From NCBI GenBank assembly GCA_016927245.1, contig JAFGNA010000017.1, positions 17,242 to 81,241 of the forward strand: a DNA stretch of 64,000 bases. Direction: 5' to 3'. How positions within the stretch are numbered: position 1 is the stretch's first letter; each line of letters opens with the position of its first letter. The translations under genes and the position numbers were made by a program. The stretch comes from Candidatus Woesearchaeota archaeon (GTDB lineage Archaea; Nanobdellota; Nanobdellia; Woesearchaeales; WJKR01). The notes beneath the pieces are model-generated. The model was not told where the DNA came from and made no database searches. It worked only from the letters and a program-made list of their open reading frames with translations. Of the stretch, positions 445 to 51,880 are shown one piece after another.

Positions 445-670
445 CGTCCGTTGTTCCCGGAGATACCAATGGACAGGCGGGGGCGGCAGGTTTTAATCGC
501 TTCTCCGCTTCCTGTTGGTGATGGTTATTTATTGTGTCGACGGCCGTTTCTTGGACGGCGCCAAGCAGGACGCCGCGCGCGAGGAGGTCTTTCGTGCCGT
601 GTGCGATGAGCTTGATGGCGTCCTCTCGCGGTATGGGTGTGTCCGTACTAGTCTTGGTTCGTGGGTGCAT
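341..670 (-). CDS. hypothetical protein (uncertain)
   Basis: Fills the gap downstream of acylphosphatase on the same strand, but overlaps the previous gene by about 100 bp. Confidence 0.3.
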   Translation of the reverse strand: MHPRTKTSTDTPIPREDAIKLIAHGTKDLLARGVLLGAVQETAVDTINNHHQQEAEKRLKPAAPACPLVSPGTTDVIRHGREAHQHHTPPLPCPHARRTPPSSSPTPPP

Positions 671-716
671 GTCGGTGCGGATGCCGTGTTCTGCTGCTCT
701 GCTTTGCCGCGTAGCC

Positions 717-986
717 CTAGGGCCTGATGGCGAATTCCTTGAAGAGGAAGTTGGGGATCTCGTCCTCTACGGTGACGTTGCTCACCGTCGCCTCTGTCGG
801 TCCTTCGTGGCAGAGCTCGATGAAGAGCTCGATGGCGCCGTCTTCTCCTTCAGCGACGACTTCGACGCCGCCTTCGATGTTGCGTACGTACCCGTTGATG
901 CCGAGCCGGTCCGCGTGCCGTTTGAGGAATGTGCGGAAGCCTACTGCGAGGACGGTGCCGTCAATGTAGATGTGGACTTTGCGCAT
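717..986 (-). CDS. acyP: acylphosphatase
   Basis: VGFR...GYVRN..G.VEVVAEG...HEGP signature, 89 aa. Confidence 0.9.
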   Translation of the reverse strand: MRKVHIYIDGTVLAVGFRTFLKRHADRLGINGYVRNIEGGVEVVAEGEDGAIELFIELCHEGPTEATVSNVTVEDEIPNFLFKEFAIRP

Positions 987-1046
987 GTTGGTTTTTTCTG
1001 GTGCGGGCCGTTATTTATAGTTTTCGTCTTGGGAAACAGTTAAATA

Positions 1047-2767: not shown

Positions 2768-3571
2768 ATGGACCGATTGCGCACCGAACTGGAGCTCCGC
2801 GGATATTCTGACGCGACCAAGAAGAAATATCTCAAGTACAATGCAGACCTCCTAAAACTCATCGGCAAGCAAGCGGACGACATCAACAAGGACGACATCA
2901 AGAAATACTTGGCCTATTTGGTTGGAACAAAAAAGACGGCAGCTCGATCAGTGAATCTTGCCCGCGCAGCCCTGCTTTTCTTTCACAATCAAGTATTAGA
3001 AAAGAGCATCTCGGGCGTGAATGTGCCGAAAGTCCAGAAATCGCTGCCATCCGTGCTGACGAAAGAAGAAGTCATCTCATTGATAACGGCCGCGAAGACC
3101 AGGAAAAGCAGTTTCATCATCCAACTATTATATGGTACGGGGGTTCGCGTCTCAGAATTATGTGCTTTGAAGCGTTCTGATCTCGAACTACAGCAAGGCA
3201 CGGGGTGGGTGCGCTCAGGCAAAGGAGGGAAGGACCGCATGATTCTCCTACCGCAAGAACTCTATAAGGAATTGGAGCGGAAAACCCCTCAGAGTTTTGT
3301 TTTGGAAGGGAAGAATGGTCCCTTGTCACCTCGGACCGTGCAGGAAGTGGTGAAGAATGCTGCGAAACGGGCTAAAATAGCTAAGAAAGTCACGCCGCAC
3401 ACGCTCAGGCACAGTTTCGCGACGCACCTGCTCGAAGCAGGGAACGACATCAGGATAATCCAAGAGCTGTTGGGACACGCCAATCTGCAGACCACGCAGA
3501 TCTACACGCATGTCAGCAACGAGCGGAAGTTGCGCGTGCAGAACCCGTTGGACGCCCTCAACGACCGATAA
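2768..3571 (+). CDS. xerA: XerA-like tyrosine recombinase
   Basis: Catalytic motifs G.RVSEL, GKGGKDR, HTLRHSFATHLLE, LLGH, TTQIYTH; N-terminal SAM-like domain; no integron-integrase insertion. Confidence 0.9.
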   Translation: MDRLRTELELRGYSDATKKKYLKYNADLLKLIGKQADDINKDDIKKYLAYLVGTKKTAARSVNLARAALLFFHNQVLEKSISGVNVPKVQKSLPSVLTKEEVISLITAAKTRKSSFIIQLLYGTGVRVSELCALKRSDLELQQGTGWVRSGKGGKDRMILLPQELYKELERKTPQSFVLEGKNGPLSPRTVQEVVKNAAKRAKIAKKVTPHTLRHSFATHLLEAGNDIRIIQELLGHANLQTTQIYTHVSNERKLRVQNPLDALNDR

Positions 3572-4013: not shown

Positions 4014-4072
4014 CTGACCAGATTATTTTTTATTTTTTTCTAATGCTTGCTGTTCGTCAGGAGGAGGCGTTG

Positions 4073-4423
4073 CTAGTGATTTCTGGCGCTTCTTCTCTTG
4101 AGTTGTCGCTGTTGCGAGTGCCTGATGCGGCTACGCAGGCCTGCGAAGTATTTGGAGAAGTCTGCGTAGAGCGTCTTGAGCTCTGCTGTCCCTCTCAGCG
4201 TGAGGGAGTACATTTTCTTCCTGCCGAATTGCTCGAAGCTGACAAGCCCGTGCTTGCGGAGTTCCTTGAGGGCGGGGTAGATGGTGCCTGGTGTCAACGG
4301 TCCTGTTCCTTTGCGTTTTCCTATCTTCTTAGCCAGGTCCTCGCCGCACAGGCTCTTCCTCTTGAGCTCGTGCAGGATGAGGAAGCTGAGGAATCCTTTG
4401 AGGTCGAGGAATTTCGATACCAT
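4073..4423 (-). CDS. PadR family transcriptional regulator
   Basis: GFLSFLILHEL...PGTIYPALKEL...GRKKMYSLT.RG. Confidence 0.9.
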   Translation of the reverse strand: MVSKFLDLKGFLSFLILHELKRKSLCGEDLAKKIGKRKGTGPLTPGTIYPALKELRKHGLVSFEQFGRKKMYSLTLRGTAELKTLYADFSKYFAGLRSRIRHSQQRQLKRRSARNH

Positions 4424-4752
4424 CGCTTGCTCGTACCGCCTGAATTATTTAAATCTTTCGTTATTTATTGGTTCTCCTATTTATTGGTGATACAATAGAA
4501 AAGACCGAAACAACAGCAATAAAATGATTAAGCTATGCTAAAAAACTCTAGAAAGAATGGTGTTGGAAAACACCAAGCAAAAAACCAAAAGAAGAAAACC
4601 AAATGAACAAAGCAAGAACCAACAAGAAGACAAGAAGAACAGAAAGACACCAACAAAAACCCTACGATCCCCGACGAGAACACCTATAGAAAACTTTATA
4701 AACTTCTGCGTCGAGTGCAAACACCACCATTAGTGGCACGCGAGGCACAGCG

Positions 4753-5988
4753 ATGGAAAAAGGCCTAAAAAGACAACTACTCATTACCCTATCCCTCACC
4801 CTCACAGGACTGCCCCTCGCCACAGCGGCCAGAACCGGCATCCAACCACTCAACGGCGTCCTCGAACTCATCAGCAGCGTGTTCTACCCCTCAGCAATCC
4901 TCAACAACACAACCCTCAGGATAGGCTTCTTCAAAGCACTCTACTTCTTCCTCATCTTCGCCGTCGTCAACATCATCCTCAAAAAAGCGAAAGTGTTCCA
5001 AGGGGACGACAACTCGAAAAGAGGAGCCACGGTCGCGGCCGCCGTCTTCGCACTCATCGCCGCGTTCTTCATGCCAGCGCAAGCGTCCGAAGGGCTCGCA
5101 GGGTTCATCGTCACCATCTTCACCCTCATCGCACCCGTAGGGCTCGCAGGATTCCTCGCCTACTACTCCATGGCCAAGCTCAAGAAAGACTGGATCCAAC
5201 ACCTCTTCGGCCTCATCCTCCTCTTCGTCAGCTCCTTCATCATCAGCTGGACCATGGGCGCCATCCCCACGATGCGCGTCGCGCAAGACCTCACAGACAC
5301 CATACTCTCCTACGCATTGCTCGCCATCAACATCCTCATCATCATCAAGCTCATACAGCTCATCAGCGCAGCGTTCAAAGGCGTCAAGCTCCCCAGCATC
5401 CGCCCAGGTGGCGGAGGTGACGGCGGCGGGGGCGGCGGAGAAAGGCCAGAACGGCCACCGAAAGAACCAGCAACCATCATGGTCCGCGTGCTCAGCGCCG
5501 ACAACCAACCTTTGCCCGAGACCATTGTCGAATGGGTGCGGCGGCGACGCGTCAAGGCACGCGACATCACCAACGCGCAAGGAAATGCCCCTACCTCAGG
5601 CCAGCCATTTAGCCTTCACCCCGTGAAGCACACGCTGCGCTGCACTTACCGCCTTGGTGACCATCAAGAATTCGTCCCGACCCAGAACAATACGCTCGAA
5701 GACGGTCACACCGTCATCCTCAAGCAGAACTTCAGCCTCCGACGAGGGGACAACGGCACCATCACCATAATCCTTGGTGTCAGGCAGCGAGGAGAAGGAG
5801 GAGAAGACGGCGGAGACGAGGACTTCTGCCCCCGCATCACCAACCTCAGGCTCATCCAACCAGAAGTGCTCCGCGCAGAAGCAGTCATAGACGCCCAGGA
5901 AGCACAGCTCGACGTGCAAGGAGCGGAGCAAGACGTGCGACAAGCGACCGTGGAAGGACCACCAGCACAAGGGGGTGAGCGACCATAG
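4753..5988 (+). CDS. multi-pass membrane protein with Gly/Pro linker and C-terminal beta-rich domain
   Basis: Signal-like N-terminus, about five TM segments, GGGGDGGGGGG linker, beta-strand-like tail. Confidence 0.8.
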   Translation: MEKGLKRQLLITLSLTLTGLPLATAARTGIQPLNGVLELISSVFYPSAILNNTTLRIGFFKALYFFLIFAVVNIILKKAKVFQGDDNSKRGATVAAAVFALIAAFFMPAQASEGLAGFIVTIFTLIAPVGLAGFLAYYSMAKLKKDWIQHLFGLILLFVSSFIISWTMGAIPTMRVAQDLTDTILSYALLAINILIIIKLIQLISAAFKGVKLPSIRPGGGGDGGGGGGERPERPPKEPATIMVRVLSADNQPLPETIVEWVRRRRVKARDITNAQGNAPTSGQPFSLHPVKHTLRCTYRLGDHQEFVPTQNNTLEDGHTVILKQNFSLRRGDNGTITIILGVRQRGEGGEDGGDEDFCPRITNLRLIQPEVLRAEAVIDAQEAQLDVQGAEQDVRQATVEGPPAQGGERP

Positions 5989-7448
5989 CGAAAGAGCAGC
6001 CCCAAAGACGAGAAACGAAGCAGGAGAAGGTACCTGCCTGGTTCTTCACCACGTGGTGGGCGCTCAAGGACGCCGCCACGGCGCGCAAGCTCCAGCACGA
6101 CAAGACCTATCCGACCCAAGAAGCATCACCCATGCAAGCAAGGGCCACGCCCAAAGAACCGACTGGCGACTTCTTCAAGCCGGCGAGCGGCACGCCCATA
6201 GGGATACGCCTCGGACAGGACGGCATCGCGCACGCGCACGAACCCCTCGCCAGGGACATCGCCTATCCCCAGGCGCTCCAAGCATCCCACCCGTTCATCG
6301 CGTTCGGCATCGCGCACGTCGCGCAGCAAGAGCTAGAGAAGCTCAAGGACATCAAGCACATCAACGACATCCAAGGACTCGACCCGACCAACCTGGAATG
6401 GCACTGGGCCTACGAGCGCATAGACCAAGGAGAAAACGAGGAGCACGGCCGCATCGCCGGGCGCGTCATCAACCAGACGATGGTAGCGGAGAAAGGCCTT
6501 GACCTTACCAAGCCCGCGGACATAAAACGGGCGATCGACGACCCCGCCCTTGGCGTCAAGCACCGCGAGGTACGTCTCTTCCTCCATAGCGAGAAGCACG
6601 CCTTCGACCACCAGCAATCCGACAAGCAAGGCATGTTCGTCTTCCTCCGCCTCCCTGTGAACAAGCAGCTCCAGCTCAGGACGGAGTACAACAAGAAGAC
6701 GTACACGCAAGTCATCCCCGCACGGCAAGAAGGCGTCGCGGAAGGCTACTTCACCATCGCCCCTGACAAGGTCAAGGTGTGCGTCATCGCCGTCCCCGGC
6801 CCGAAGGGCAAGCGGCCAAAGCAGCCTATCGACGAGCCGCAACTCGCCATAGGCGTAGGCACGCAGGAAGAACGCATCGACGCGCTCACCAAGCGCGTCG
6901 TCATGAGCGGGCTCAAGGGGTGCAAGGAGCACATCTACACGGAAGGGTCCGTCAAGCTCGACAAGGAACTCCTCGACATCATTGCCAAGGACGCCGGTCT
7001 GATAAGGAACATCTACTTCCTCGACCGGCAACACCCCTCGCTCGGCATCGCGAACATCGCGAACAACTTCTACGCGCAGAAATTCGCCATCGCCGGCGTC
7101 GCGTGCTTCCGCGCCGAGCACGAAGGGAACGTCCTGAAATCCGGCGACATCAAGGAGTTCGCGGAGCGCCAAAAAGCGTACGTCACCCTCGCGGAGAAGA
7201 CGACCATGCTCGCCCAGCTTCAAAAGGAGAAATCGTTCAACACTTCGATGCGGTTCTTCCCCCCGCCCGCACAAACGCACATCAAGGAGCGGCTCGAAAA
7301 AAAGTACCTGGGCGTGAACGTCGCCAGGGCCATGGAGACAGGCCTACGCAAGGAAGCCGAGGAGCTGGGAGCGTTGCTCAAGCAGCAGCTCGCGAAGACC
7401 AAGCATGACGAAACACCACCTGAAAAACCCGTAGGAGGTGATGCCTAG
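5985..7448 (+). CDS. hypothetical protein with possible beta-sandwich domain; probable ATA start at 5985 (first ATG at 6132)
   Basis: Frame open from 5979; GGGGTGA SD-like element precedes the ATA that overlaps the upstream TAG. Confidence 0.75.
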   Translation: MAKEQPQRRETKQEKVPAWFFTTWWALKDAATARKLQHDKTYPTQEASPMQARATPKEPTGDFFKPASGTPIGIRLGQDGIAHAHEPLARDIAYPQALQASHPFIAFGIAHVAQQELEKLKDIKHINDIQGLDPTNLEWHWAYERIDQGENEEHGRIAGRVINQTMVAEKGLDLTKPADIKRAIDDPALGVKHREVRLFLHSEKHAFDHQQSDKQGMFVFLRLPVNKQLQLRTEYNKKTYTQVIPARQEGVAEGYFTIAPDKVKVCVIAVPGPKGKRPKQPIDEPQLAIGVGTQEERIDALTKRVVMSGLKGCKEHIYTEGSVKLDKELLDIIAKDAGLIRNIYFLDRQHPSLGIANIANNFYAQKFAIAGVACFRAEHEGNVLKSGDIKEFAERQKAYVTLAEKTTMLAQLQKEKSFNTSMRFFPPPAQTHIKERLEKKYLGVNVARAMETGLRKEAEELGALLKQQLAKTKHDETPPEKPVGGDA

Positions 7449-8419
7449 TGGTGTTCGCCACGGCCAAGCTCAAGCTCGCCCACCTCTTCGTGAGCAGCAA
7501 GCGCCTCTCAAAGCATATGCTCAAGAACGAACGAGCAGCCACAATCATCCTCGAGCAACTCGAGAAAGACTACTACTCCTCGCTCAGGGAAGCGCTCCAG
7601 TACGGCAGCAACCCGCAAGCGCTCTGGCTCGCAGAACAGTTCTGCAAGCAGGCCTTGGAGTTCTCCTCTAAAGCGGTGTTCAGCGAGGAGCAGGAGAGCC
7701 TGCTCTACATCATGCGCAAGTACGGCACGTTCGAAGACCTCGCCAAAGACTTCAACAAGGATACCAAGAACTACCTCCAGAAGAGCGAAGTGAGCGAGCA
7801 GACCCAGCAGAAGATGCAGGCAGTGCTCAAGAACCTCGCTGGGGAGGAACAGAAGATACACGGCATCATCAGGACTATCTTCAAGGAGATACGGCACGAG
7901 AAGCGGGACAAGGAGCGGTTCAAGGAGAAGATCTTCAACCTGCGCCAAGAGGCAAACCTCAGGAAAGACCTCAAGGAGATGCGCCAGAAGAGCACCGCAG
8001 AACACCAATTCTCAGAGAAAGGAGAACACCTCCTCGACGACCTGGAAAAAGAGCTCAAGCACCTCAAAGGGGACGAGAAGGCCGCGGACATCGAGGCCAA
8101 GATAGGGAAGACTCTGGACGAGTTCGAACGCGTCGTCGTCAAGGATGAGGAGCTGCTCAACGAAGTCATCAATGACGCCGCGTACGTCATCAAGTACGCC
8201 CTGCACGAGTTCTTCCACTGCGAAGAACTTGTGGAGACGTATGAGCATTACTACTGGCAACTCTACACGCAAGGATTCCTCGCTGAGGAGACTGCGGCAA
8301 GGGCGAAACAACTGTTCAAGGAGCTCCATAACCGACTCGACCAAAAGACCAAGGAGACGTACCGCATCATCAGGAAGTATCGCAAGAGGGCGGGCAAAGA
8401 AGAGGTGGACGCACCATAA
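7448..8419 (+). CDS. long coiled-coil protein
   Basis: E/K/L-rich helical ORF; GGAGGTGA SD and start overlapping the upstream stop. Confidence 0.8.
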   Translation: MVFATAKLKLAHLFVSSKRLSKHMLKNERAATIILEQLEKDYYSSLREALQYGSNPQALWLAEQFCKQALEFSSKAVFSEEQESLLYIMRKYGTFEDLAKDFNKDTKNYLQKSEVSEQTQQKMQAVLKNLAGEEQKIHGIIRTIFKEIRHEKRDKERFKEKIFNLRQEANLRKDLKEMRQKSTAEHQFSEKGEHLLDDLEKELKHLKGDEKAADIEAKIGKTLDEFERVVVKDEELLNEVINDAAYVIKYALHEFFHCEELVETYEHYYWQLYTQGFLAEETAARAKQLFKELHNRLDQKTKETYRIIRKYRKRAGKEEVDAP

Positions 8420-17678: not shown

Positions 17679-17690
17679 TATCAACACCTC

Positions 17691-39957: not shown

Positions 39958-40202
39958 AATGGTTCGAAAATCTATGTAGATACCATTACCGACATGAGCG
40001 CGAAATACCTGAATTGAAGAGAAAATTTGGGATTGTTAATGTTGTCGGCTCTATACTTCTCTCAGTGGCCATTATTGAATTAGTAAATCTTATTTTCATT
40101 GATAAAATCATTAAAATTATCATCCTTGCCTTCGCAGGTAGCATACTAATAATGATTAGTCAGAGTATTCATTTTATTGAGAAAAAAAGAGATGATTTCT
40201 AA
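39954..40202 (+). CDS. two-TM small passenger protein
   Basis: ATGA overlap; two hydrophobic segments. Confidence 0.55.
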   Translation: MKWFENLCRYHYRHEREIPELKRKFGIVNVVGSILLSVAIIELVNLIFIDKIIKIIILAFAGSILIMISQSIHFIEKKRDDF

Positions 40203-40993
40203 TTAAATATTTCAACTGATTCTTCCCTCTCAGACCAAAGAAGCGTTTTTACAGAATAAGTTTCAAACTTTTTCAGGTCGTCTGGTGAAACTTTTCTCTC
40301 CTGGTCATTAATGATAACGAATTGATCAGCTGAAGCGTGAACCGTCGCACCCCCCCTTATATCTGATAGTGTGAATAAGACCGCCCTATATCCAGTATTA
40401 GACGGGGAGTTAATAACCTTGACAATTTTTTCGTTTTCCTCTTTTTTCCTTGATGGAATAACAAAGTCAATCTTATTGCTGAAGCCCTTTCCTTCAATCG
40501 TCACATCTCGTGTTGCAGGTATAGAATGCTCTGCAAAGAAATTGGCAACATCTTCAAAGAACAACGCTTTAACATAAGGTTTTGAAAGTATAAACATATC
40601 ACCAATATTTATCATTGCTTGAATTAGTTTATGTTTGCTCTTTGCCAAATCCGACTCTTTACATTCAATGAATATTTCAGAAGTGTCGTTATCAAACCGG
40701 ACCCCAAGACCATTGATGAACTGCGAGAGGATGTCTTTTCTATTTTCTGTGAGTTCAAGATTGTTCGTTTTGAGATCATAATAAGTCATACCATCATCGG
40801 TTAATTTATAAGAATCTGATTTCTCATTGTAAACAACATAAATTCTCAAGTAGTCATTATGTGTATCAAGGAATGGACTGTCAATGGAGGCAATTTTTAC
40901 TCCTTCTTCGTTCGAGGGAATATCTTTAAAACTAATTCTTTCTCTTAGCCAATTCAAGTAATCCTCAATTAGTTTGTCCGGTTGAAGAGTCAT
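40199..40993 (-). CDS. DUF1828/DUF1829-like protein (possible C-terminal nuclease-like domain)
   Basis: PFLD.HND...IY, LTDDG.T, LIQAMI.I.DMF, F.EDV, KIDFVI, IIND. Confidence 0.75.
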   Translation of the reverse strand: MTLQPDKLIEDYLNWLRERISFKDIPSNEEGVKIASIDSPFLDTHNDYLRIYVVYNEKSDSYKLTDDGMTYYDLKTNNLELTENRKDILSQFINGLGVRFDNDTSEIFIECKESDLAKSKHKLIQAMINIGDMFILSKPYVKALFFEDVANFFAEHSIPATRDVTIEGKGFSNKIDFVIPSRKKEENEKIVKVINSPSNTGYRAVLFTLSDIRGGATVHASADQFVIINDQERKVSPDDLKKFETYSVKTLLWSEREESVEIFN

Positions 40994-41442
40994 TTTTTCC
41001 AGTTTCCTGCGCCAGCAGATTTTTGAATTTTGATGCTCGTCTTTGCAATATTGCATAATTCCATGAATTTCTCAATCACAGATCCAAAGTCACTAAGGTC
41101 TTTGAAACCATATTGATTTGCTGGAAATGCAAACCTGTCATTGTATCCTTCCCTATATACATGAACATGAGGACCTGTCACTTTTACTCCACCCGGATTG
41201 ATGTGCACGCGATCATCAACATCAAGCCTCAGCAATGTGAAAACACTGTGGACTCTGTGACCACATCTCATCATTTTCAGCTCGATTTTTCCTTGTTTAA
41301 TGTCAAGCGCAAATATATCGCCGTGAGCATCCGACACAACAGGTTCGCTGAGGTCAAATGATTCGGTCAACTTGACCTCCGTCACATTTTTTAATCGTTT
41401 TGGAACTTTCAGGTATTCAGTTGCTTGATCCTGTTTTAACAT
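40990..41442 (-). CDS. DUF6978-like protein
   Basis: LLRLD....H.NP.G....GPH.H.YREGY.D.FA.P; ATGA overlap with the downstream gene. Confidence 0.72.
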   Translation of the reverse strand: MLKQDQATEYLKVPKRLKNVTEVKLTESFDLSEPVVSDAHGDIFALDIKQGKIELKMMRCGHRVHSVFTLLRLDVDDRVHINPGGVKVTGPHVHVYREGYNDRFAFPANQYGFKDLSDFGSVIEKFMELCNIAKTSIKIQKSAGAGNWKK

Positions 41443-41578
41443 CCTTTTTCCTCGGCCTATTCCAGTACGGACTCTTACACTTCGGGCACACTCTTGGCTC
41501 GCCATCTGTGTTCTCTCGCGGAACCCATATATGACTACACCTTTCGCATTGGAACGCATCGATAGTTATCTTTGCCAT
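41417..41578 (-). CDS. 53-aa zinc-ribbon microprotein
   Basis: MAKITIDAFQCERCSHIWVPRENTDGEPRVCPKCKSPYWNRPRKK...; TTATATAA upstream; not in the ORF track. Confidence 0.75.
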   Translation of the reverse strand: MAKITIDAFQCERCSHIWVPRENTDGEPRVCPKCKSPYWNRPRKKDVKTGSSN

Positions 41579-41731
41579 TTTAATGTACCGTCCGTACTTG
41601 ACCAGTGATTTAAATATACTTATATAATCCTATTATAGTATTAGTATATTACTATAAATATTTTACTAAAGCGAAAACTATATATACTTCTACTATATAC
41701 CTAATAGTAATATATTAATAAGTGAATAAAT

Positions 41732-42865
41732 GTGACGACCGATAGCATTATATTTGTTACACCGACACCCGGACAAGTCACCGAGGTGGAGAGTGAGGAA
41801 CAAACAAAATTCACGGACGACGAAAGGATCATTGAGATCCCTCCGGAGGATAAACAATCTCCAAGGAAGAGCAAACCCACTTATCCTCAAAACTGGCAAG
41901 CATATAATGCAGCAAAGACTAATGAAGACACCTACTTTAAACGCCTTCTAAGAGAACTTCTGTTCGTCAGCATAGATGAGAAGCCCTCAAAAAAACCCGG
42001 TAGGAAGGGCTACAGCGACCAGGATAAGATATTCGCTATGTGCATCAAAATATACTACAAGGGCGATCTACGCAAGGCCGAAGGCATCCTAAAAGAGCTC
42101 AAGAACCTCAAATTCATAGAGAAGGTGCCTTGCTTTAAAAGCATCGACAATTTCTTCAACGACGAAACACTCACCAAAATACTGGATAATCTCATTCTCA
42201 TCAGCGCATTACCGCTTGCACAGATAGAAGAGACAGGAGCTATAGACAGCACAGGCTTCAGTACGAGCCAGTTTGAGAGCTGGAACACATTCAAATGGGG
42301 GAAGCACGAAGGGAAAGAACGCGTCTGGAGAAAAGCCCATGCATGCACCTGCTGCAAGACCAACGCATTCCTCAGTATTAAAGTTACTGAGAAGAACGTC
42401 GGTGACGCGGCGATGTTTAACGACGTTGTTGGCAACTACACCAAATACTTCAATATGCCTGATTTCGTCGCAGACAAGGCGTATCTGAGCAGAGACATTC
42501 TTAAAACTATCAAGAAACTCGGCATGAACCCCTACATCCCGTTCAAGAAGAACAGTATCCAAGCAGCAAAAGGTGCTATGATCTGGAGTCAAATGTACGC
42601 AGAATTCATGACGAACCGAGAGGAGTTCATGCAGAAATACCACCGCAGAAGCAATATTGAGACGAGTTTCCACATGCTCAAGATGCGCTTTGGCAACCAT
42701 TGCATGACGAGAACCTTCCATGCACAGACCAACGAGATCAAAATCAAAACACTCTGCTTGAACCTCTGTATTCTCATTCAGGAGATGTTTGAGCGCCAGA
42801 TAGTGATTGATTTCAACGACTGTGTTAATCTGTGTAATAATGAAGAATCCTGTGTAAAATTGTGA
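41732..42865 (+). CDS. DDE transposase, IS5-like
   Basis: IDSTGF, W.K.H, GD...F, ADKAY, Y..RS.IET.F..LK. Confidence 0.9.
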   Translation: MTTDSIIFVTPTPGQVTEVESEEQTKFTDDERIIEIPPEDKQSPRKSKPTYPQNWQAYNAAKTNEDTYFKRLLRELLFVSIDEKPSKKPGRKGYSDQDKIFAMCIKIYYKGDLRKAEGILKELKNLKFIEKVPCFKSIDNFFNDETLTKILDNLILISALPLAQIEETGAIDSTGFSTSQFESWNTFKWGKHEGKERVWRKAHACTCCKTNAFLSIKVTEKNVGDAAMFNDVVGNYTKYFNMPDFVADKAYLSRDILKTIKKLGMNPYIPFKKNSIQAAKGAMIWSQMYAEFMTNREEFMQKYHRRSNIETSFHMLKMRFGNHCMTRTFHAQTNEIKIKTLCLNLCILIQEMFERQIVIDFNDCVNLCNNEESCVKL

Positions 42866-42968
42866 TTATTTTTTACACAAAGCCCTCATTTCCGTAAATT
42901 ATTTAAATGAGCTCATTCTACACCAACCTTGTCGACTTTAAATCAACAAAAACTAGGTGTTTTCGCGC

Positions 42969-43445
42969 ATGGCAGACAAGAAGAAAAGCAAGACCGCGGA
43001 GCTCAAGGAACAAGTCCAAGAGCTCACTAACTCCCTGCAACGGGCACGGGCAGAACTCGAGAACTATCAGAAACGCGTGGAGCGCGACCGGGAACAGCAG
43101 CAGAGATACGCCTCTGAAGGCGTCCTGAAACGGTTCCTTCCCATCCTAGACAACCTCGAGCTCGCCCTCAAGCACTGCACCCAGCAGGACGATTTCTACC
43201 GTGGCGTGGAGATGATCTACGCGAACATCAGGAGCATGCTCGAGGAGGAAGGCGTCAAGCCTATCCAAGCACTAGGACTCCCCTTCGACCCGTACCGGCA
43301 CGAGGCCCTGCTCACTAAGGAGTCAGACCAACCGGAGAACGCGATCGTCGACGTCATGCAGCAAGGCTACACCTACCACGACAAAGTCTTGCGACCCGCA
43401 AAGGTCGCCATCAGCAAGAACAAGACAGGAGGGAAAGAAAAATGA
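42969..43445 (+). CDS. grpE: nucleotide exchange factor GrpE
   Basis: [20 protein letters not shown]...DKVLRPAKV. Confidence 0.95.
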
Positions 43446-45310
43446 GCAAAATCATAGGGATAGACCTAGGAACGACGTTCTCCGCAGTGGCGGTGATGGA
43501 AGGCGGCAAGGCCACCATCATCCCGAACGCGGAGGGCAGCAGAACCACGCCGTCAGTAGTGAGCATCACCGATGACGGCGAGCGATTGGTGGGCCAGATA
43601 GCGAAGAACCAAGCCATCACCAACCCTGACAACACGGTGCGGAGCATCAAGCGCCACATGGGAGAAGACCACAAGACCAAGATGCAGGGCAAGGAGTACA
43701 CGCCGCAGGAGATCAGCGCGATGATCCTGCAGAAGCTCAAGACGGACGCAGAGGCCTACCTCGGGGAGAAGGTCGAAAAAGCAGTCATCACCGTCCCAGC
43801 CTATTTCGAGGACGCGCAGCGGCAGGCTACGAAGGACGCTGGCAGGATCGCCGGGTTGCAAGTGGAGCGCATCATCAACGAGCCCACCGCGGCCTCGCTC
43901 GCGTACGGCCTAGACAAGGGGCAGGACCACACCATCCTCGTCTTCGACTTCGGCGGCGGCACGTTCGACGTGAGCATCCTTGAACTGGGCGATAGCGTGT
44001 TCGAGGTCAAGGCCACGAACGGCGACAACCACCTCGGCGGCGATGACATCGACGACCTCATCATCGACTGGCTCGCCGACAAGTTCAAGAAGGCGCAAGG
44101 CATCGACCTGAAAAAGGACCGGACCAGCCTGCAACGGCTGAAGGAAGCGGCGGAGAAGGCGAAGATCGAGCTCAGCAATAAGAGCAAGACGAGCATCAAC
44201 ATCCCCTTCATCACCGCTGATGACAAGGGGCCGAAGCACCTCAACGAGGAGCTCACCAGGGCGGAGTTCGAGCGCCTCATCAGTGACATCATCGAACGGC
44301 TCAAAGTCCCGACCATGCAAGCCCTGAACGACGCCAAGCTCAAGCCGGCGGACATCGACAAGGTCATCTTCGTCGGCGGCAGCACCAGGATTCCCAAGGT
44401 GCAGGAACTCGTGAAGAGCATCACGGGCAAGGACGGCGACAAGTCCGTGAACCCTGACGAGGCAGTCGCCCTCGGCGCAGCCATCCAGGCAGGCATCCTC
44501 GCAGGTGACGTCAAGGACGTCCTGTTGCTGGACGTCACGCCGCTCAGCCTCGGCATCGAGACGCTGGGAGGGGTGATGACCAAGCTCATCGATAAGAACA
44601 CGACCATCCCGACGAAGAAGAGCCAGGTCTTCAGCACCGCGGCGGACAACCAGAACGCGGTGAGCGTCCACGTCCTGCAAGGGGAACGACCGATGGCCGC
44701 CGATAACAAGACGCTCGGCAGGTTCGACCTCATAGGTATCCCGCCCGCGCCGCGGGGCGTGCCGCAGATCGAGGTGACGTTCGACATCGACGCCAACGGC
44801 ATCGTGCACGTCAAGGCCAAGGACCTCGGCACGGGGAAGGAGCAGAGCATCAAGATCACCGCGACGACTAACCTGTCAGAAGAGGAGATCGATAAGATGC
44901 GGCGGGAGGCAGAGACCCACGCTGAGGAGGACAAGCGGAAGAAGGAGGAGGTCGACGTTGTCAACGAGGCTGACTCGCTCGTGTATTCCTCGGAGAAATT
45001 GTTCAAGGACTTCGAGGGCAAGGTGGACGGTGAGAAGCTCAAGGACGTCAAGGCAAGGATTGACGAGCTCAAGAAACTGCTCGAGCCGGAGCAGAAGGAC
45101 GTCAAGGCCATCAAGGGCAAGCTCGAGGCCATCAACAAGGATCTCCAATTACTGTCGTCGGAGCTGTACCAGAAGGCTGCTGAGGAGCAGGCGAAGCAGC
45201 AGGCCGCGGGCGGTGACGCGAAGGGCGGCAAGAAGGATTCCAAGAAGGACGGGAAGGTCGTCGATGCTGACTTCGAGGAGGTCAAGGACGACAAGAAGGG
45301 CAAGAAATAA
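43442..45310 (+). CDS. dnaK: chaperone DnaK
   Basis: [41 protein letters not shown]. Confidence 0.98.
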
Positions 45311-45355
45311 AAACACCTCCTTTTTTTCTTTTTTAAATATTGTTGGGTCGGGACC

Positions 45356-46477
45356 ATGGCAGAGAAGGACTACTACGACATCCTCGGCGTGGGCAGGGAT
45401 GCCTCCAAGGAGGATGTCAAGAAGGCGTACAAGCGGCTCGCCAAGAAATACCACCCTGACCTGAACAAGGACGACCCTGACGCCGAGCGCAAGTTCAAGG
45501 AGGTCAACGAGGCCGCCTCAGTCCTCGGCGATGAGCAGAAGCGGGAGCAGTACGACCGGTTAGGCGCTGACGCGTTCAAGAACGGAACGGGCGGCTTCAG
45601 CGGGTTTGACTTCTCGGGTTTCGGCCGCGCGCAGGGCTTCGACTTCGAGGACATCTTCGACACGTTCTTCGGCGGCAGGGGGTTCGGTTCTCGTCGCAGG
45701 GGAGCCGACCAGCCAGGCGCTGATCTCCGCTATGACCTCAGCGTCACGTTGGAGGAGGCGGCTGAGGGCGTGCAGAAGGAGTTCAAGGTGAGGAAGCGCG
45801 TGCCGTGCGAGCGGTGCGGCGGGCTTGGCGGCACGGGTATGGAGACGTGCAGGACGTGTCATGGCCAGGGCGTGGTGCGCCAAGCGAGAAGGACTGCGTT
45901 CGGGGTGTTCCAGACGACGATTGCGTGTCCTGAGTGCGACGGCTCGGGGAGGCGGTTCGAGGAGACTTGCGATGCGTGCGGCGGCAGTGGCGTGGAGACC
46001 AAGGCTGTGCGCATCAAGGTGGAGGTGCCTGCTGGCGTGGAGGATGGCGTGCGGCTCCGCGTGCAGGGCGAGGGAGACGCAGGGCTGCGCGGCGGGGAGC
46101 CTGGTGACTTGTACGTGTTCGTCACGGTGGAGGAGCATGAGCACTTCGTCCGTGAGGGCGTTGACTTGCGCCTCGTCATCCCGGTCAGTTTCGTCCAGGC
46201 GACGCTCGGCGCGGAGATTGAGGTCCCGACGTTGTTCGGCCGCGCCAAGCTCAAGATTCCTGCGGGCACGCAGACTGGTACGACGTTCCGTCTCGGGGGG
46301 AAGGGCTTGCCTTCGTTGCGTGGCTCGCGCAGGGGTGATCAGCTCGTCACCGTGGAGGTGGACGTGCCGCGGCGGCTGAATGGTAGGCAGCAGCGTTCGT
46401 TGGAGGCGTTCGCCGAGACGTTGGGTGAGGGTGTTAGGCCGCAGCAGTCCTTGTTCGAGAAGATATTCAAACGATAA
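45356..46477 (+). CDS. dnaJ: chaperone DnaJ
   Basis: J-domain HPD, G/F-rich region, four CxxCxGxG repeats. Confidence 0.97.
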
Positions 46478-46553
46478 CCACTACGAAGTGACAAAAACCG
46501 AAAAGTTTATAAATGGTCTGTGAGACCACCACGAACAGAGGTGAACCACCCCG

Positions 46554-46790
46554 ATGGCAGCCAACCAAGAACAACCAGCAAGCAAGGAAGAACAAATAGG
46601 ATTCCACAAAGGAGCCCTCAGCACCCTCGCGAAAGAACGGCAAGAACTCGCCCGCATCCTCCAGATAGTGGAGCAGCTCATGCAGATGCACATCGGCGAG
46701 CTCAAAGAGATGGGCGTCGACCTCCAAGCACAAGCAACCAGCGAGGAAGACAAGCCCAAGCAGAAGAAGCCCATAGAGGACATCCTCTGA
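46554..46790 (+). CDS. small hypothetical protein
   Basis: GAGGTGA SD, TTTATAAA TATA; helical EQIGFHKGALSTLAKERQEL. Confidence 0.75.
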   Translation: MAANQEQPASKEEQIGFHKGALSTLAKERQELARILQIVEQLMQMHIGELKEMGVDLQAQATSEEDKPKQKKPIEDIL

Positions 46791-46860
46791 ACACATCGTT
46801 CAAGCAGCCTTTTCTTACCTTTCAGCAAGTATAAAAGCGCAAACACATTTCCCCAAAAGC

Positions 46861-48180
46861 ATGCACCCAGACCTGCTAGAAGTGTACCGCAAGGCAGAAC
46901 GCAAACCCAACCCCGGAGGCGCAGGGCTAGACGCAGTCTTCACCAAGATCGTACGCCACCACCGAGGACCAGTCAGGACCGCCAACCAGCGGCACCGGGA
47001 GAACAAGCAGCACATCGAGCAAGGCAAAGAACCGCCGCACCGAGAACTCATCACCATCGACGAGCTCACCACCGTCATCGAAGACGAGCCGGCAGAATCA
47101 CTCTGCCTCGTCGTCAACCTCTTCGACAAGAAAAAAGTCGTGCGCGGCGGTAATCGCGCAGGAGGCATCCACGCCATCAACGTGACCGGCGCACTGCGGC
47201 CGTTCGCCTTCCTCATGGAAGAGCTCGGAAGCTACCACGACGTCACAACATTCCTCGAAGTAGCCGCGAACCACGACGTCGGCGAGGACGGGCTCCTCTA
47301 CATAGGCGACCTCGACCGATTCCTCCGCACCGGCTTGGTGAACGACACGTTCACCATGAGAAGAGAGGTCTACGAGAAAGTCGCAGCCCTCACGAACAAG
47401 TACAAGTTCCTCGTCGACGACCTGGAGACCAGGATTAACCGCTACAACCTGACCAGCGAAGACCTCAAGGACGCGTTCGAGGAGATGCGCGAAGAGGTCA
47501 GGAGCAAAGACCTCCTCGCAAGGATAGACGCCATAGAAGAGCACATCAGGACGAGCAAGTACAACGTCGCGCAGGCAGAGAAAGAAGCGCTCCGGCAAAT
47601 CTACTTCGACAACAAGATCGCCTACGACAAGATACTCACCACCAAGGCGTTCAACGACTTCGACCGCACAAGCCAACTATACGGCCCCTACCTCGACCTC
47701 GCCCTACAGATTCTCGAGCCCCACGAGTTCATCTTCAAAGGAGCGGATCGCACCGACAACACCGGCGACGACAAGTACACCAAGCAGAAACACCGCGTAC
47801 GTAACCACATCAAGGTAGAATACATCATCACCAAAGGCATGCAGAGCCCGTGGGCGGACAACCAATACAACAAGTACATCACCATGACGCTCATCGAGCG
47901 AGACCTCGCCCGTCACCGCAACCCCCACTACATCACCGAGGAGCAGATGCGGAAAGAAGGCGTGCCCGAGGAGAAAATCCCGATCTACCGCAAACTCACC
48001 GATAAGGCATACCAAGCAGTGGTCGGGTTCGAGCCAGATCTCAAAGCGTACAAGGAGCCGGACGCGTCGGGCAAGAGCGAGGCCACCAAGATCATCGAGC
48101 AGCTGGACCTCACCAAGCGTCAGAGGAAGAAAGGCAAGATATACGATCTCAAAGGCCTCTTCGGGAGGACCGCCCTATGA
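46861..48180 (+). CDS. HD-domain protein, RelA/SpoT hydrolase-like (candidate SAH)
   Basis: R.G.....IHA.NV, AANHDVGED, IFKGADRTDN correspond to RSH/Mesh1 hydrolase motifs. Confidence 0.7.
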   Translation: MHPDLLEVYRKAERKPNPGGAGLDAVFTKIVRHHRGPVRTANQRHRENKQHIEQGKEPPHRELITIDELTTVIEDEPAESLCLVVNLFDKKKVVRGGNRAGGIHAINVTGALRPFAFLMEELGSYHDVTTFLEVAANHDVGEDGLLYIGDLDRFLRTGLVNDTFTMRREVYEKVAALTNKYKFLVDDLETRINRYNLTSEDLKDAFEEMREEVRSKDLLARIDAIEEHIRTSKYNVAQAEKEALRQIYFDNKIAYDKILTTKAFNDFDRTSQLYGPYLDLALQILEPHEFIFKGADRTDNTGDDKYTKQKHRVRNHIKVEYIITKGMQSPWADNQYNKYITMTLIERDLARHRNPHYITEEQMRKEGVPEEKIPIYRKLTDKAYQAVVGFEPDLKAYKEPDASGKSEATKIIEQLDLTKRQRKKGKIYDLKGLFGRTAL

Positions 48181-49640
48181 CCTTCACAGAGGAGACCAGG
48201 AAGAAGTTCGACGCGCTCAGCGTCCCCCAGATCATCCTCACATACGCGCAACTCCACAAGCCGGAAAAACCCGCGTACACCAAGAAGGAGATGATGGAAC
48301 TCCTCGACGTCATCGTCGACAGAAGGGTGCACGAGACGGGCGGCCCACCCGGCATCGACGGCACGATGAAGAAAGCGACAGCAGACCTCATCAAAGCAGC
48401 GGCAAGGTTCCCCGAACAGTTCGCCACGCAGCCCTACACGACCTCACAATACCTGCAGACCAAGCAGATCATCAACCTCTTCGGCAACGAGTTCTTCACC
48501 CAACGGAGCCTGCAACGGTTCTACGACCGGCAGACAGCGCAAGGCATCAACGAGAACTTCAGAGACATCAAGGGCTTCGACACGGAGAAGTTCAAGAAGA
48601 AGAAAGAGAAAGGGGGCAACCCATCAGGATTCGTCGAGAACACCTTCGACTACGACATCGAGCTCCAGCTCTACTTCCTCAGAGGGTTCAACACCGAACG
48701 CATCGGCAACAAGCAACCGATCTGGATAGCGGAAAAGCAAGGAAAGACCAAATCGCTCACGTACAAGCTCAAGAACGAGATAGCAATCCACCTCCCCCTC
48801 ATCAAAGAAGGAACCCTCACAACACTTGATCCTTACGTCATCATAGCACACTACTTCAACGACGAAGAAGTATTCAACCAGCCAATCTACAAGGAGATAT
48901 TCGGGCAGCTCAGCGAGGAGGACAGGTCATTCATCAAGGAGAAGAAGAAGTGGCGGGACGAAGAGAAAGAAAGGAACAACGAGGAACACCCGAAGCTCTG
49001 CAAGCCGGACGAGCAACGCATGAAAAAGATCTGCGACCACCTCAGGCCCTACATGCAAATGATTCCGAAAGAATCACAGGACGGACTGCTCGAGCAGGCA
49101 ATACTCGAGTTCGGAGACATCGACGACATGAGAGGCATCAAGATAGTGCTCCCTGACGACGCGTACTTCAACCAGTACGTCAACCAGCTCATCAGCCACC
49201 CGTTGTTCTACCGTGAGAAACGGCTCGACCAGCACGACGGGACGAAGAAGCGGAAGACGAGCTACCGCGCGTCACACGGCTGGCTGCGATCAGGACGGTT
49301 CGAGCGGCAGGATGAACGATACGAGCTGTACAGCGCGGCGGAGAGGAAGGAGATACACCTCCTCAACATGAGCACCGGCATCATCGACCTGCTCGGCAAG
49401 GACAACAGCTGGAGCTATCACCAACGGCAGCAACGAGAGAAGTACGGCCACTTCTCCAAGGAGCAGAAAGCCATCGCGGACTTCGCGGAGAAACGCATCT
49501 ACGCCATCGCCGACAGCATCACCGACCCCTTCAAGGAAGTGCTGAAAGAGCGAAAATCAGAGTTCGACACGGAAGAGCGATACTACCACGTGCTCGAGGA
49601 ACAAGCAGAACGAGCGCTCATCAAGCTGGCTACTCGTTAA
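48177..49640 (+). CDS. divergent RelA/SpoT synthetase-like nucleotidyltransferase (candidate SAS)
   Basis: GKTKSLTYKL, IDDMRGIKIV, K.SYRASH, EIHLLNM in the canonical order; ATGA overlap with the HD gene. Confidence 0.6.
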   Translation: MTFTEETRKKFDALSVPQIILTYAQLHKPEKPAYTKKEMMELLDVIVDRRVHETGGPPGIDGTMKKATADLIKAAARFPEQFATQPYTTSQYLQTKQIINLFGNEFFTQRSLQRFYDRQTAQGINENFRDIKGFDTEKFKKKKEKGGNPSGFVENTFDYDIELQLYFLRGFNTERIGNKQPIWIAEKQGKTKSLTYKLKNEIAIHLPLIKEGTLTTLDPYVIIAHYFNDEEVFNQPIYKEIFGQLSEEDRSFIKEKKKWRDEEKERNNEEHPKLCKPDEQRMKKICDHLRPYMQMIPKESQDGLLEQAILEFGDIDDMRGIKIVLPDDAYFNQYVNQLISHPLFYREKRLDQHDGTKKRKTSYRASHGWLRSGRFERQDERYELYSAAERKEIHLLNMSTGIIDLLGKDNSWSYHQRQQREKYGHFSKEQKAIADFAEKRIYAIADSITDPFKEVLKERKSEFDTEERYYHVLEEQAERALIKLATR

Positions 49641-50121
49641 CCACGACCAACCGCCGCGCCTTGGGCACGTAGTTGAGCAGGACGACCCCCTCATCCTTCC
49701 CCACGCGCGGCTGCCGCACCTTGCCGCAGCCGAGCACATCACCACCATGCCTGACGATGACGAACTCGTTGCCCGACCCCTGCCAAGGCAAGTCCTCGCC
49801 CTTCAGCCACGAGCGCCGCTGCCCGCCATCAACCTCCACCACGTTCCTAGAAGCGATCGGGGCGAGGAGCTGCGACCCTTCCATGCTGAGACGGAAACCG
49901 TCCGCCTGCCAAGCGCCGAGATAGAGGCCGATGCTATCGATGCGCAACGACTCATAATCGACTCGCTCGACGTCACGGTTGACCACGTACACCTTGCCCT
50001 TGGCGTTCTGGACGAAGACCGCCCAAGGCAACTCCTCGACACCGAACTGCTCCTGCAAGGCCTGCAACAACCGCTTACGATCCTTGCTGTTCAGGAACCA
50101 ATTGCCAGGCGGCAAGCCCAT
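49630..50121 (-). CDS. NIP7/RsmF C-terminal-like PUA-domain protein
   Basis: IGLYLG....DGFRLSMEGSQL, W.KGED, LGCGK, LLNYVPKARR. Confidence 0.78.
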   Translation of the reverse strand: MGLPPGNWFLNSKDRKRLLQALQEQFGVEELPWAVFVQNAKGKVYVVNRDVERVDYESLRIDSIGLYLGAWQADGFRLSMEGSQLLAPIASRNVVEVDGGQRRSWLKGEDLPWQGSGNEFVIVRHGGDVLGCGKVRQPRVGKDEGVVLLNYVPKARRLVVVNE

Positions 50122-50122
50122 C

Positions 50123-51880
50123 TCACACACCCCACACCGGGTTATGCTCCCGCTTGATCTGTGCGACCTCCTTCAAGACCTCCTTCTCATCAGGGGAGAG
50201 GTACTCCACGAGCCGCTTCAACTTACGAAAGTCCTCCTCCGAGACATCACTATACAAGAAGTCCGCCTCCTCCAAGTTGCGGCCGGCAGTCACGTTCGGC
50301 AATGACACCGCGACCTGCCGCCCACGCTCAGCCACGGACAACGACTCCTTATCAGCCTGGATGCCCCGGACCAAGGTGAGCGGCCGGCCGTCCCGCTTCA
50401 TGAGCGGCATGCCCGTCCGCAACGACCCCTTGAGGACCTCGACGCCAGCGATGCAGGGGTTGGACTGGCGGAACACGCAATGCTGCAGCACCTCTATCTT
50501 GCACGGGCGCACCAAGCTGTCAAGCTGCTTTGCCTCGTCCTCCTTGCGGCGCTCCTGCCGCCACGCCTCGTACTCGTCGATGATGCGATAGATGACGTCA
50601 TGCACGATGACCTTGACGCGATCAGTGCTCTTGGCAGGGGCGACGTTGAACCCGAGGACAGCAGCGTACAACGGGTGCTTCTCAGCGTTGGACTCCGCCT
50701 CGCTGACGTCTTTCTTGACGACCTGTCCGACGCTCGCACGCCTGATGGGGATGCCGTGCTCCCGGAGCAATGCGATCATGGCCTCGAGGCTGCCGAGAGT
50801 GTCCGCCTTGATGATAACCCCTTCGTGCTCAGTGGCTATCTGGACGTCGTTAATCTGCGCCGCCACTTCGGCAACGGCGTCAGCAACGCCCGCAGGGCTG
50901 GTGACGAGGACCGGCATGCCCGCAGCAGCCCCCTCCAGGTCCGGCGCCGATATCTTGACGCCCGTGGCGGCGGCTGCTTCCTTGACGCTGCGGAACTTGC
51001 CCTTCCGGTCGCGCATCTCCGTGTTCGGCCACGGCTCGAACAACGCCCGCGCCTTCGCCTGCCTCGGCTCGTCCAAGGTGCCGTACACGAACGTGTCGCC
51101 CACACGCATCCTGCCGTCATAGAGGATGACATCAATGGTCTTCCCCAACCCCTTGTCCTCCTTGACCTCGAGGATGACGCCCTTGCCCGGGCCGCTGACA
51201 TCAAAGGACAACGACTGCTCCAAGTACCGTTGCGCGAGCCCCGAGATGACGAGGAGGAGCTCCTGCAGGCCGAGGCCTGTCTTCGCAGAGCACGGCACGA
51301 TGGCGACCTGTTTGGTGAAGTCATCCACGCGGTCGAAGCGCTCCGCCTGCAACGAGAACCGCTCGTACAGGACGCCGACGAGCCCGTACAACTTGGTGTC
51401 CACGTCGCGAGCGACGTGCTCCGCCTGCGCCGCCAACTGGCTGACGAGGGGCCCGTCCTTGTTGGAGAACCCGGGGATGAGGTCGAGCTTGTTGGCAGCG
51501 ACGATGAACGGCGTCCTGGTGTTCTTGAGGATCTCGACTGACTCGAGGGTCTGCGGCTTGCAACCCTCATTGATGTCAACGACGAGGATGGCGATGTCCG
51601 CGAGCGAACCGCCCCTGCTCCTGAGCGAGGTGAACGCCGCGTGCCCGGGCGTGTCGATGAAGAGGAGTCCGGGGATGGTGAGGTGGAGCTTGGTCTCGTC
51701 GAGGAGGCTGCCGAGCCGCTGCTTGATGGTCTCTGCGGGGATGATAGAGGCGCCGATGGCTTGGGTGATGGCGCCGGCCTCGCCCGCGACGACGTCGCTG
51801 CCCCTGATGGCGTCCAGGATGCTTGACTTCCCGTGGTCGACATGGCCCAGGACCGTGACGATAGGGCTGCGGATGCTCAT
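50123..51880 (-). CDS. infB: translation initiation factor aIF5B (IF-2)
   Basis: RSPIVTVLGHVDHGKSS, GAITQAIGA, DTPGH, NKLD, KADTLGSLEA; true start ATG 51880. Confidence 0.96.
   Translation of the reverse strand: MSIRSPIVTVLGHVDHGKSSILDAIRGSDVVAGEAGAITQAIGASIIPAETIKQRLGSLLDETKLHLTIPGLLFIDTPGHAAFTSLRSRGGSLADIAILVVDINEGCKPQTLESVEILKNTRTPFIVAANKLDLIPGFSNKDGPLVSQLAAQAEHVARDVDTKLYGLVGVLYERFSLQAERFDRVDDFTKQVAIVPCSAKTGLGLQELLLVISGLAQRYLEQSLSFDVSGPGKGVILEVKEDKGLGKTIDVILYDGRMRVGDTFVYGTLDEPRQAKARALFEPWPNTEMRDRKGKFRSVKEAAAATGVKISAPDLEGAAAGMPVLVTSPAGVADAVAEVAAQINDVQIATEHEGVIIKADTLGSLEAMIALLREHGIPIRRASVGQVVKKDVSEAESNAEKHPLYAAVLGFNVAPAKSTDRVKVIVHDVIYRIIDEYEAWRQERRKEDEAKQLDSLVRPCKIEVLQHCVFRQSNPCIAGVEVLKGSLRTGMPLMKRDGRPLTLVRGIQADKESLSVAERGRQVAVSLPNVTAGRNLEEADFLYSDVSEEDFRKLKRLVEYLSPDEKEVLKEVAQIKREHNPVWGV

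Follow-up and report, generated by a model that had tools for sequence, protein, structure and literature searches.

A sawtooth of strand composition in a Woesearchaeota genome, anchored at gene-cluster starts and apparently linked to transcription units

We analysed a 64,000-nucleotide stretch of a Candidatus Woesearchaeota genome (assembly GCA_016927245.1, contig JAFGNA010000017.1; the stretch as a whole, G000:C5:17242-81241, is called the window below), along which the G+T content of the plus strand rises and falls in a sawtooth. The genome, G000, consists of 1.11 Mb in 24 contigs with about 57% GC, and we take the organism, as labelled, to be a tiny symbiotic DPANN archaeon with a single RNA polymerase. 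Pfam matches on 81 open reading frames (ORFs) in the window are archaeal (eIF6, prefoldin, LonB, TFE, Nre, Kae1, aIF5B and L35Ae), and an orc1-DP1-DP2 operon is present in the genome. Genes and their starts were called with our own simple and crude codon-usage caller, which gave 983 genes (82% coding), and transcription units were delimited from gene spacing. The main measure was the fraction of G+T at fourfold-degenerate third positions, referred to either the plus strand or the coding strand, and jumps were detected as the change in plus-strand G+T between the 60 fourfold sites on each side of a point. Comparisons were made with two congeners, G002 and G001, and with G018, G024 and G030, which are relatives in the same order; as kin, these genomes are not independent. 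A search for rRNA found no small-subunit (SSU) or large-subunit (LSU) gene in G000 and no LSU gene in G001 or G002.

In 500-bp windows of the stretch G+T spans 0.32-0.66, and an earlier note had named six sites at which the plus strand turns abruptly from G+T-rich to A+C-rich. Its hand counts are exact (41/60 at 46381-46440, 15/60 at 46561-46620, 36/60 at 27121-27180, 24/60 at 27541-27600 and 44/60 at 1381-1440), as is its remark that 4566-4661 holds a single T (96 nt; A61 C21 G13 T1), and over 600 bp to the left and right of the six sites G+T is 0.66/0.43, 0.60/0.35, 0.64/0.42, 0.59/0.47, 0.59/0.45 and 0.60/0.35. The first flip lies in an AT-rich divergent intergenic region (1413-1813), with a minus-strand acylphosphatase gene (717-986) and a weak ORF (1212-1412) on its left and plus-strand genes from 1814 on its right. 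At the second (4424-4752), a minus-strand PadR gene (4073-4423) diverges from a plus-strand cluster (4753-8419), and fourfold plus-strand G+T drops from 0.72 in PadR to 0.23 in 4753-5988, with a copy of the palindrome TTTATAAA at 4695-4702. The third (16567-16770; TTTATAAA at 16705-16712) is again divergent, between a minus-strand SLT-domain gene (15775-16566) and tRNA-Val (16771-16843, plus strand) followed by ScpA, eIF6, prefoldin and FtsY; fourfold plus-strand values are 0.82 and 0.32 on its two sides, and the jump measures 0.68. The fourth (27225-27493; TTTATAAA at 27368-27375) is the promoter region of a minus-strand TFE cluster (25630-27224) and lies downstream of Nre (27494-28747, minus strand), with fourfold plus-strand G+T of 0.87 in TFE and 0.44 in Nre. 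The fifth (33184-33458; jump 0.48) separates a minus-strand Lrp/AsnC-like gene (32698-33183) from a divergent plus-strand gene (33459-34814). The sixth (46478-46553, plus strand; TTTATAAA at 46506-46513) follows grpE-dnaK-dnaJ (42957-46477) and precedes a further plus-strand cluster (46554-49640), whose promoter it would contain; fourfold G+T is 0.56 in DnaJ and 0.24 in 46861-48180, and the pattern is repeated in the congener.

Two of the genes that had been placed on the plus strand are in fact minus-strand genes, since Pfam backs the minus strand for acylphosphatase and PadR; the overlapping plus-strand ORFs at 534-1043, 1047-1577 and 4043-4498 gave no Pfam match. With these assignments and the tRNA-Val gene, four of the flips (1.6, 4.45, 16.6 and 33.35 kb) turn out to lie between divergent genes. 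Only those at 27.4 kb (-/-) and 46.48 kb (+/+) separate co-oriented genes, and both begin a new gene cluster with the TTTATAAA box just ahead. The T-poor stretch beside the second flip falls in a possible 58-aa, Lys/Arg-rich ORF at 4557-4733 (plus strand, C-terminal CVECKHHH), putatively coding, and the TTTATAAA box at 4695-4702 would sit within it. Comparison of this 4.45-kb spacer with the congener gave nothing clear, as the region differs.

Genome-wide, coding-strand fourfold G+T has a mean of 0.40 (A 0.126, C 0.470, G 0.319, T 0.085) and a standard deviation of 0.115 among 871 genes, compared with 0.045 expected from sampling; G+T at first codon positions varies with it (r=0.56). The check that the earlier note had proposed, a recount at fourfold sites, leaves the skew in place: sharp drops in plus-strand G+T outnumber sharp rises by 116 to 61 at a threshold of at least 0.3, by 52 to 9 at 0.4 or more and by 20 to 0 at 0.5 or more. 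Because the shape of a sawtooth is unchanged by reverse complementation, this excess of drops is meaningful. That the skew is independent of gene direction holds only in part. Orientation explains 45% of the gene-level variance in plus-strand fourfold G+T, 48% is left, and 7% is sampling noise. When a constant orientation effect was subtracted, 50 drops and 9 rises were left at 0.35 or more, compared with 1 and 4 in a simulation that included orientation only.

The flips are closely tied to the starts of genes. A gene start pointing away lies within 350 bp of 49 of the 52 flips of at least 0.4, compared with 50% of 1000 random positions, and 12 of the 13 flips that fall "inside" a called gene sit 34-196 bp within its 5′ end, which is most simply explained by an over-extended start. 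Sense-strand G+T ahead of 21 strongly skewed genes that have a long spacer before them is 0.39-0.40 at -150..-1, 0.46-0.47 at -250..-151 and 0.49-0.53 beyond -300, which places the onset of the skew about 150-200 bp upstream of start codons; farther upstream of these genes the DNA is neutral and shows no mirrored G+T-rich zone. Non-coding 5′ flanks follow the skew of their gene with r=0.49 at -100..-1 and 0.31 at -200..-101 (0.17, not significant, at -300..-201; n=65), and non-coding 3′ flanks do so with r=0.34 and 0.26 (n=75). The TTTATAAA box, present at four of the six flips of the window, occurs in 113 copies in G000 where about 5 are expected from base composition, 91 of them intergenic by our calls, and is presumably the preferred TATA box. 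As an exact marker of flips it was rejected, being found within 300 bp of only 8 of the 20 strongest (5.7% of random positions). At another flip, the A-rich spacer just beyond it (G000:C20:36296-36553) contains a motif like TATTATGTATGAAA about three times.

From these starts the skew decays in the direction of the genes. Within genes, coding-strand G+T climbs 5′ to 3′ from 0.37 to 0.45, with a slope of +0.052 per kb that is positive in 68% of 460 genes (p=9e-16), and along 30 long directons it goes from 0.344 at the start through about 0.41-0.43 at 4.5-6 kb to 0.458 at the end. Distance in bp from the directon start and distance from the directon end both showed a trend; gene rank from the start did not. 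The skew is also continuous across genes of one cluster: adjacent 500-bp flanks correlate with r=0.68 and 0.56 over tight co-oriented junctions, as against 0.16 and 0.15 at gaps of at least 100 bp, and at divergent junctions the strength on one side shows no correlation with that on the other (r=0.00, n=80). A 12.4-kb ribosomal-protein operon is skewed uniformly (coding strand 0.17-0.35), and the skew stops at the operon end. In the window, the plus cluster at 16771-20257 has coding-strand fourfold G+T of 0.25-0.34 and is weaker further downstream.

At convergent junctions, on the other hand, the skew passes from one gene into the next against the direction of the latter. Whole-gene coding-strand values of convergent neighbours correlate negatively (r=-0.53, n=145; -0.52 for 35 long, high-scoring pairs), and strand-referenced skew correlates with r=+0.76 in tight convergent pairs (n=24) and 0.40 at gaps of at least 200 bp; only 7 tight pairs have both genes of at least 1 kb, too few for the range of the spill-over. 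This carry-over is the true core of the independence from gene direction that the earlier note had perceived. Two examples lie in the window. The minus cluster at 25630-27224 has coding-strand fourfold G+T of 0.13-0.25, and the tightly convergent ZPR1 gene (25081-25608, plus strand) is skewed in the same strand sense (0.58). In the tooth from 46554 to 52216, A+C prevails in the plus cluster at 46554-49640, and the minus-strand genes that converge on it, at 49630-50130 and 50123-52216, were scored as keeping an A+C-leaning plus strand (0.43 and 0.54).

The bases involved also describe the process. At fourfold sites the GC and AT skews vary together (r=-0.55, n=552), ranging from (-0.45, +0.62) to (+0.06, -0.17), so that C>G accompanies A>T, and a joint excess of this kind marks asymmetric transitions. 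In the proteins, the 75 genes with the strongest skew differ from the 75 with the weakest by a higher content of I, K, T, Q and H and a lower one of V, G, F, S, C and W. The earlier claim of an asymmetry at the level of nucleotides is thus borne out at fourfold sites, in non-coding flanks and in amino-acid usage. These observations bear directly on the possibility that the pattern arises from ordinary coding effects alone, namely gene orientation, amino-acid composition and selection at translation for codons ending in C, and needs no process at the level of the strand. Such effects would account for the 45% of variance that goes with orientation, for C as the commonest fourfold base (0.47) and for the strong skew of the ribosomal-protein operon, and a preprint, as far as its consulted sections go, ascribes local archaeal skews to gene orientation and argues against mutational bias (10.1101/2023.11.15.567178). 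Likewise, the consulted part of Chen et al. 2016 (PMC4844684) describes a prokaryote-wide preference for C over G at synonymous sites of transcripts, in agreement with G000. However, U is favoured over A there, whereas A>T covaries with C>G here. The bias in G000 moreover reaches into non-coding DNA on the 5′ and 3′ sides of genes and past changes of orientation, it gives convergent neighbours opposite coding-strand biases, it is graded within genes, and it moves amino-acid usage along the same A/C versus G/T axis; no strong skew is seen in the genes for EF-1alpha and the thermosome. The flank and convergent-pair results largely refute a reading by coding effects only, and we regard it as unlikely.

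The pattern has also been retained over a long divergence. In 37 pairs of orthologs between G000 and G002, fourfold identity is 0.469, compared with 0.362 expected if sites were independent, which is near saturation, and yet the per-gene skew correlates with r=0.65; G002 repeats the succession of low grpE, middle dnaK and high dnaJ, followed by the flip. The flips are therefore fixed sites, as had been proposed, and since the skew is common to the congener despite near-saturated fourfold sites, it is actively maintained. This bears on a relic mosaic, in which an ancestral genome-wide replication skew was cut up by many inversions. Strong orientation-independent skews in G018, G024 and G030 would supply the material for such a mosaic, but inversions predict equal numbers of up and down jumps and not the 20 drops to 0 rises seen at 0.5 or more, and a relic would be neither actively maintained nor graded within genes. 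The jump asymmetry rules this candidate out, and we give it practically no weight.

The earlier note had suggested, since single-origin chromosomes switch skew only twice, that the flips are many closely spaced origins, fork barriers or loading sites of a translocating, ssDNA-exposing machine. Replication in the order can be judged from G030 (23% GC), which has a single change point (395259), located in the spacer that precedes orc1-DP1-DP2 (G030:C1:394482-395085, loci L140-L141). Plus-strand fourfold G+T switches there from 0.369 to 0.580, and the plus- and minus-strand genes from 0.318 and 0.413 to 0.573 and 0.606, which is a textbook, orientation-independent origin signature. We assume an origin rather than a terminus because the switch adjoins orc1; if so, the leading strand is G+T-rich, opposite to every strong flip in G000 including the flip at its own orc1. 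G030 was the one relative to provide a clean origin switch, and G024 is compatible with it. The replication polarity measured in this order thus has the classical sense. Polarity alone is not decisive across domains, because yeasts have an A+C-rich leading strand according to the consulted part of PMC3459929.

One origin per flip, as miniature human skew N-domains, would agree with the shape of the sawtooth, with the position of the strongest flip of G000 upstream of the orc1-polD operon and, on the yeast convention of the same partly consulted source (PMC3459929), with its polarity. Against this stand the opposite polarity of the G030 switch, the absence of mirrored skew upstream of flips, the independence in strength of their two sides, and a single Cdc6_C (orc1) match in G000 compared with about 50-116 flips, so we hold closely spaced origins to be very improbable; the polarity in G030, the neutral upstream DNA and the uncorrelated divergent sides also speak against fork barriers. 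The strongest flip itself (0.72) is in the spacer G000:C21:63483-63937 (locus L096), where short inverted CTCCAACCC / GGAGGTTGGG-like elements, candidate initiator boxes, can be recognised by eye.

Regional offsets that may reflect replication do exist. In G000 they amount, over 30 kb, to only ±0.09 or less. At about 80-110 kb of G002:C2 (loci L015-L016), by comparison, the plus strand is richer in G+T by about +0.15 whichever way the genes point, much more than in the G000 orthologues, and members of one genus thus differ in this replication-type offset. In the closed, 1.30-Mb chromosome of G018 (G018:C1; loci L018-L022 and L033-L092) fourfold sites of the plus strand favour A+C whichever way the genes point in all but one of 33 windows of 40 kb, there is no return in the cumulative keto count, and orc1, at about 764-765 kb, has a mere local step; this genome-wide asymmetry of one strand is unlike a two-replichore pattern. 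As for the promoter-anchored component, a gradient within genes is absent from G030 (-0.030 per kb, p=0.26) and weak in G018 (35% GC), where the jump asymmetry is weak too (22 drops and 15 rises at 0.35 or more), so that this component is strongest in the GC-rich genus of G000 and G002. Repair genes offered no lead: in a contrast of G000, G001, G002, G018 and G030 nothing tracked the phenotype, with the Ogt-type domain in 5 of 5, UDG in 3 of 5 (not found in the two incomplete congeners) and Endonuclease V in 0 of 5.

A different source of asymmetry would be two-sided exposure of single-stranded DNA (ssDNA) at promoter sites, through breaks with 5′-to-3′ resection or through forks converging on a barrier, such that the strand ending 3′ at the site is deaminated and becomes G+T-rich, with an effect that fades with distance. 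The polarity agrees with standard deamination logic, as the strand running 5′ to 3′ toward a flip is the G+T-rich one; the skew crosses orientation boundaries at convergent junctions, its strength is not tied to expected expression, and the orientation-corrected residual is still a sawtooth (50 drops and 9 rises). A two-sided process is disfavoured, however, by the neutral rather than mirrored DNA upstream of strongly skewed genes (0.49-0.53), by divergent sides that are uncorrelated, and by co-oriented promoter gaps at which the correlation is +0.15 and not negative; the ribosomal operon is fully skewed for 12 kb and loses the skew at its end. The fork-barrier version further requires initiation in every 5-13 kb tooth, with genes head-on to the forks. 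We consider two-sided exposure unlikely. It is similarly a long shot, in our estimate, that promoter-region sites expose a strand by something other than transcription, such as breaks with kilobase resection or forks that meet bound transcription factors, and so leave a deamination footprint blind to gene direction. The milder form of this idea would be RNA polymerase traffic with read-through into convergent genes, whose transition bias of unusual polarity would be strong enough to reshape proteins and to let transcription units be mapped from the sequence.

We think it rather likely that the sawtooth is a strand asymmetry linked to transcription units, anchored at promoters and acting in one direction, and that the asymmetry is probably mutational in origin. 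The sense strand is strongly A+C-rich from about 150-200 bp before the first start codon of a cluster, the bias fades 5′ to 3′ and runs beyond stop codons into 3′ flanks and tightly convergent neighbours, and the next promoter resets it. As a model, plus-strand fourfold G+T would equal 0.5, plus a small regional offset, minus orientation times E(x), where E(x) is estimated at about 0.25-0.35 at the cluster start and falls toward zero at and past the cluster end, and where the offset of ±0.05-0.09 probably comes from replication. Sharp starts and fuzzy ends give a sawtooth. Most genes lead away from a divergent promoter region that they share with a neighbour, and the plus strand is therefore G+T-rich up to a promoter, drops abruptly to A+C-rich and drifts back. 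RNA polymerase would be the simplest agent because of the sharp starts, the fuzzy ends, the direction and the operon-wide continuity, its traffic being the presumed cause, with the spill-over attributable to read-through transcription. The bias would then be an asymmetry of transitions between template and non-template strand and not selection on transcript composition; we lean to mutation over selection, given that silent sites of convergent genes are affected as well and that amino-acid usage changes with the bias. In keeping with an asymmetry of transcription, the skew is anchored at starts and follows gene direction, is present at synonymous sites and in flanks that are presumably transcribed, and is continuous within a unit and reset between units. 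The suggested loading sites of a translocating, ssDNA-exposing machine would thus fit with RNA polymerase as the machine and promoters as the places where it loads, a link that we infer.

Several observations weigh against a link to transcription. None of the listed sequencing runs contains 43001-52500 of the window as RNA, two metatranscriptome runs of the same study contain next to no sequence words of it, and the only matches are assembled contigs of one DNA run; transcript starts, read-through and antisense transcripts are all deduced here from the DNA. Expected expression is a poor predictor of the skew: EF-1alpha has an all-site GC skew of about 0 and an AT skew of about +0.24, which by arithmetic gives a coding G+T of about 0.46, the thermosome runs, by the same arithmetic from all-site skews, from about 0.45 (5′) to about 0.53 (3′), and DnaK is modest (fourfold 0.45). 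Among the most skewed genes are instead Orc1, TFB, TFE and HTH or small regulators, which may in part be because these are short first genes, where E is highest. The presence of a consensus TTTATAAA box upstream predicts gene skew weakly (0.375 with and 0.401 without, p=0.055), and when all unselected divergent, convergent or gapped junctions are averaged the effect is small, the strong flips, about 50 in number, being a part of the whole. In some genes the coding strand itself has a G+T excess larger than noise, as in two examples with 0.65 at 310 and 569 sites, and the model covers them only through regional offset and spill-over. Finally, a G+T-rich template strand is the opposite of the classical picture, in which the exposed non-template strand is deaminated.

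A literature search did not find this pattern described in DPANN or other archaea. The closest described one is a gradient in unicellular fungi, in which, according to the consulted part of PMC3315797, coding strands are C-biased at 5′ and G-biased at 3′ ends, at fourfold sites too and into promoters and untranslated regions, by a mechanism given there as unknown. The two are alike in the 5′ C-bias, the fourfold sites, the promoters and flanks and the amino-acid shift, and the fungal gradient has been linked to transcription phases. Unlike what that text gives for fungi, in G000 the AT skew moves with the GC skew (an amino/keto axis), the unit is an operon or directon of up to 12 kb, the mean 3′ end stays below 0.5 (0.458), and the gradient belongs to a DPANN archaeon that has a single RNA polymerase. 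Human skew N-domains, as far as PMC3459929 was consulted, share with G000 a sharp jump at fixed sites, a near-linear return and genes that point away; they differ in that the teeth here are 3-13 kb and not about a megabase, that the jump is unmirrored in upstream non-coding DNA, and that its polarity is opposite to the replication skew at the orc1 origin of a relative. The skew around that origin in G030 uses the same amino/keto axis at fourfold sites, but it is independent of orientation, of replichore scale and of opposite sign, and has no within-gene gradient.

Three further features of the window were recorded. A weaker flip outside the six (58245-58386; jump 0.33 at about 58392) separates a divergent M50-like gene (57639-58244, minus strand) from FKBP (58387-58860, plus strand), with plus-strand fourfold G+T of 0.78 and 0.46. 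At 37500-43000 there is a low-GC island (0.35-0.44 compared with about 0.58-0.60 around it) in which G+T is near neutral; it contains genes for DUF1828/DUF1829 (40199-41056, minus strand), DUF6978 (40990-41559, minus strand) and a DDE transposase (41732-42865, plus strand) and looks like recently acquired DNA. The gene at 2768-3571 (plus strand) encodes a tyrosine recombinase (Phage_integrase with a SAM-like N-terminal domain), possibly an Xer-type resolvase or an integrase.

If transcription has left the sawtooth as its footprint, the sequence alone could reveal promoters, operon extents and read-through in this lineage, which would be useful for organisms that cannot be cultured. It would also mean that a transcription-linked transition bias, with a polarity opposite to the textbook bacterial one, shifts amino-acid usage (I/V, K/R) gene by gene. 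Short-period skew sawteeth, in turn, need not mean origins. The contrast within the order, between AT-rich relatives with replication-type, orientation-independent skew and a 57%-GC genus with promoter-anchored skew, provides a natural comparison for finding the underlying difference in repair or polymerase.

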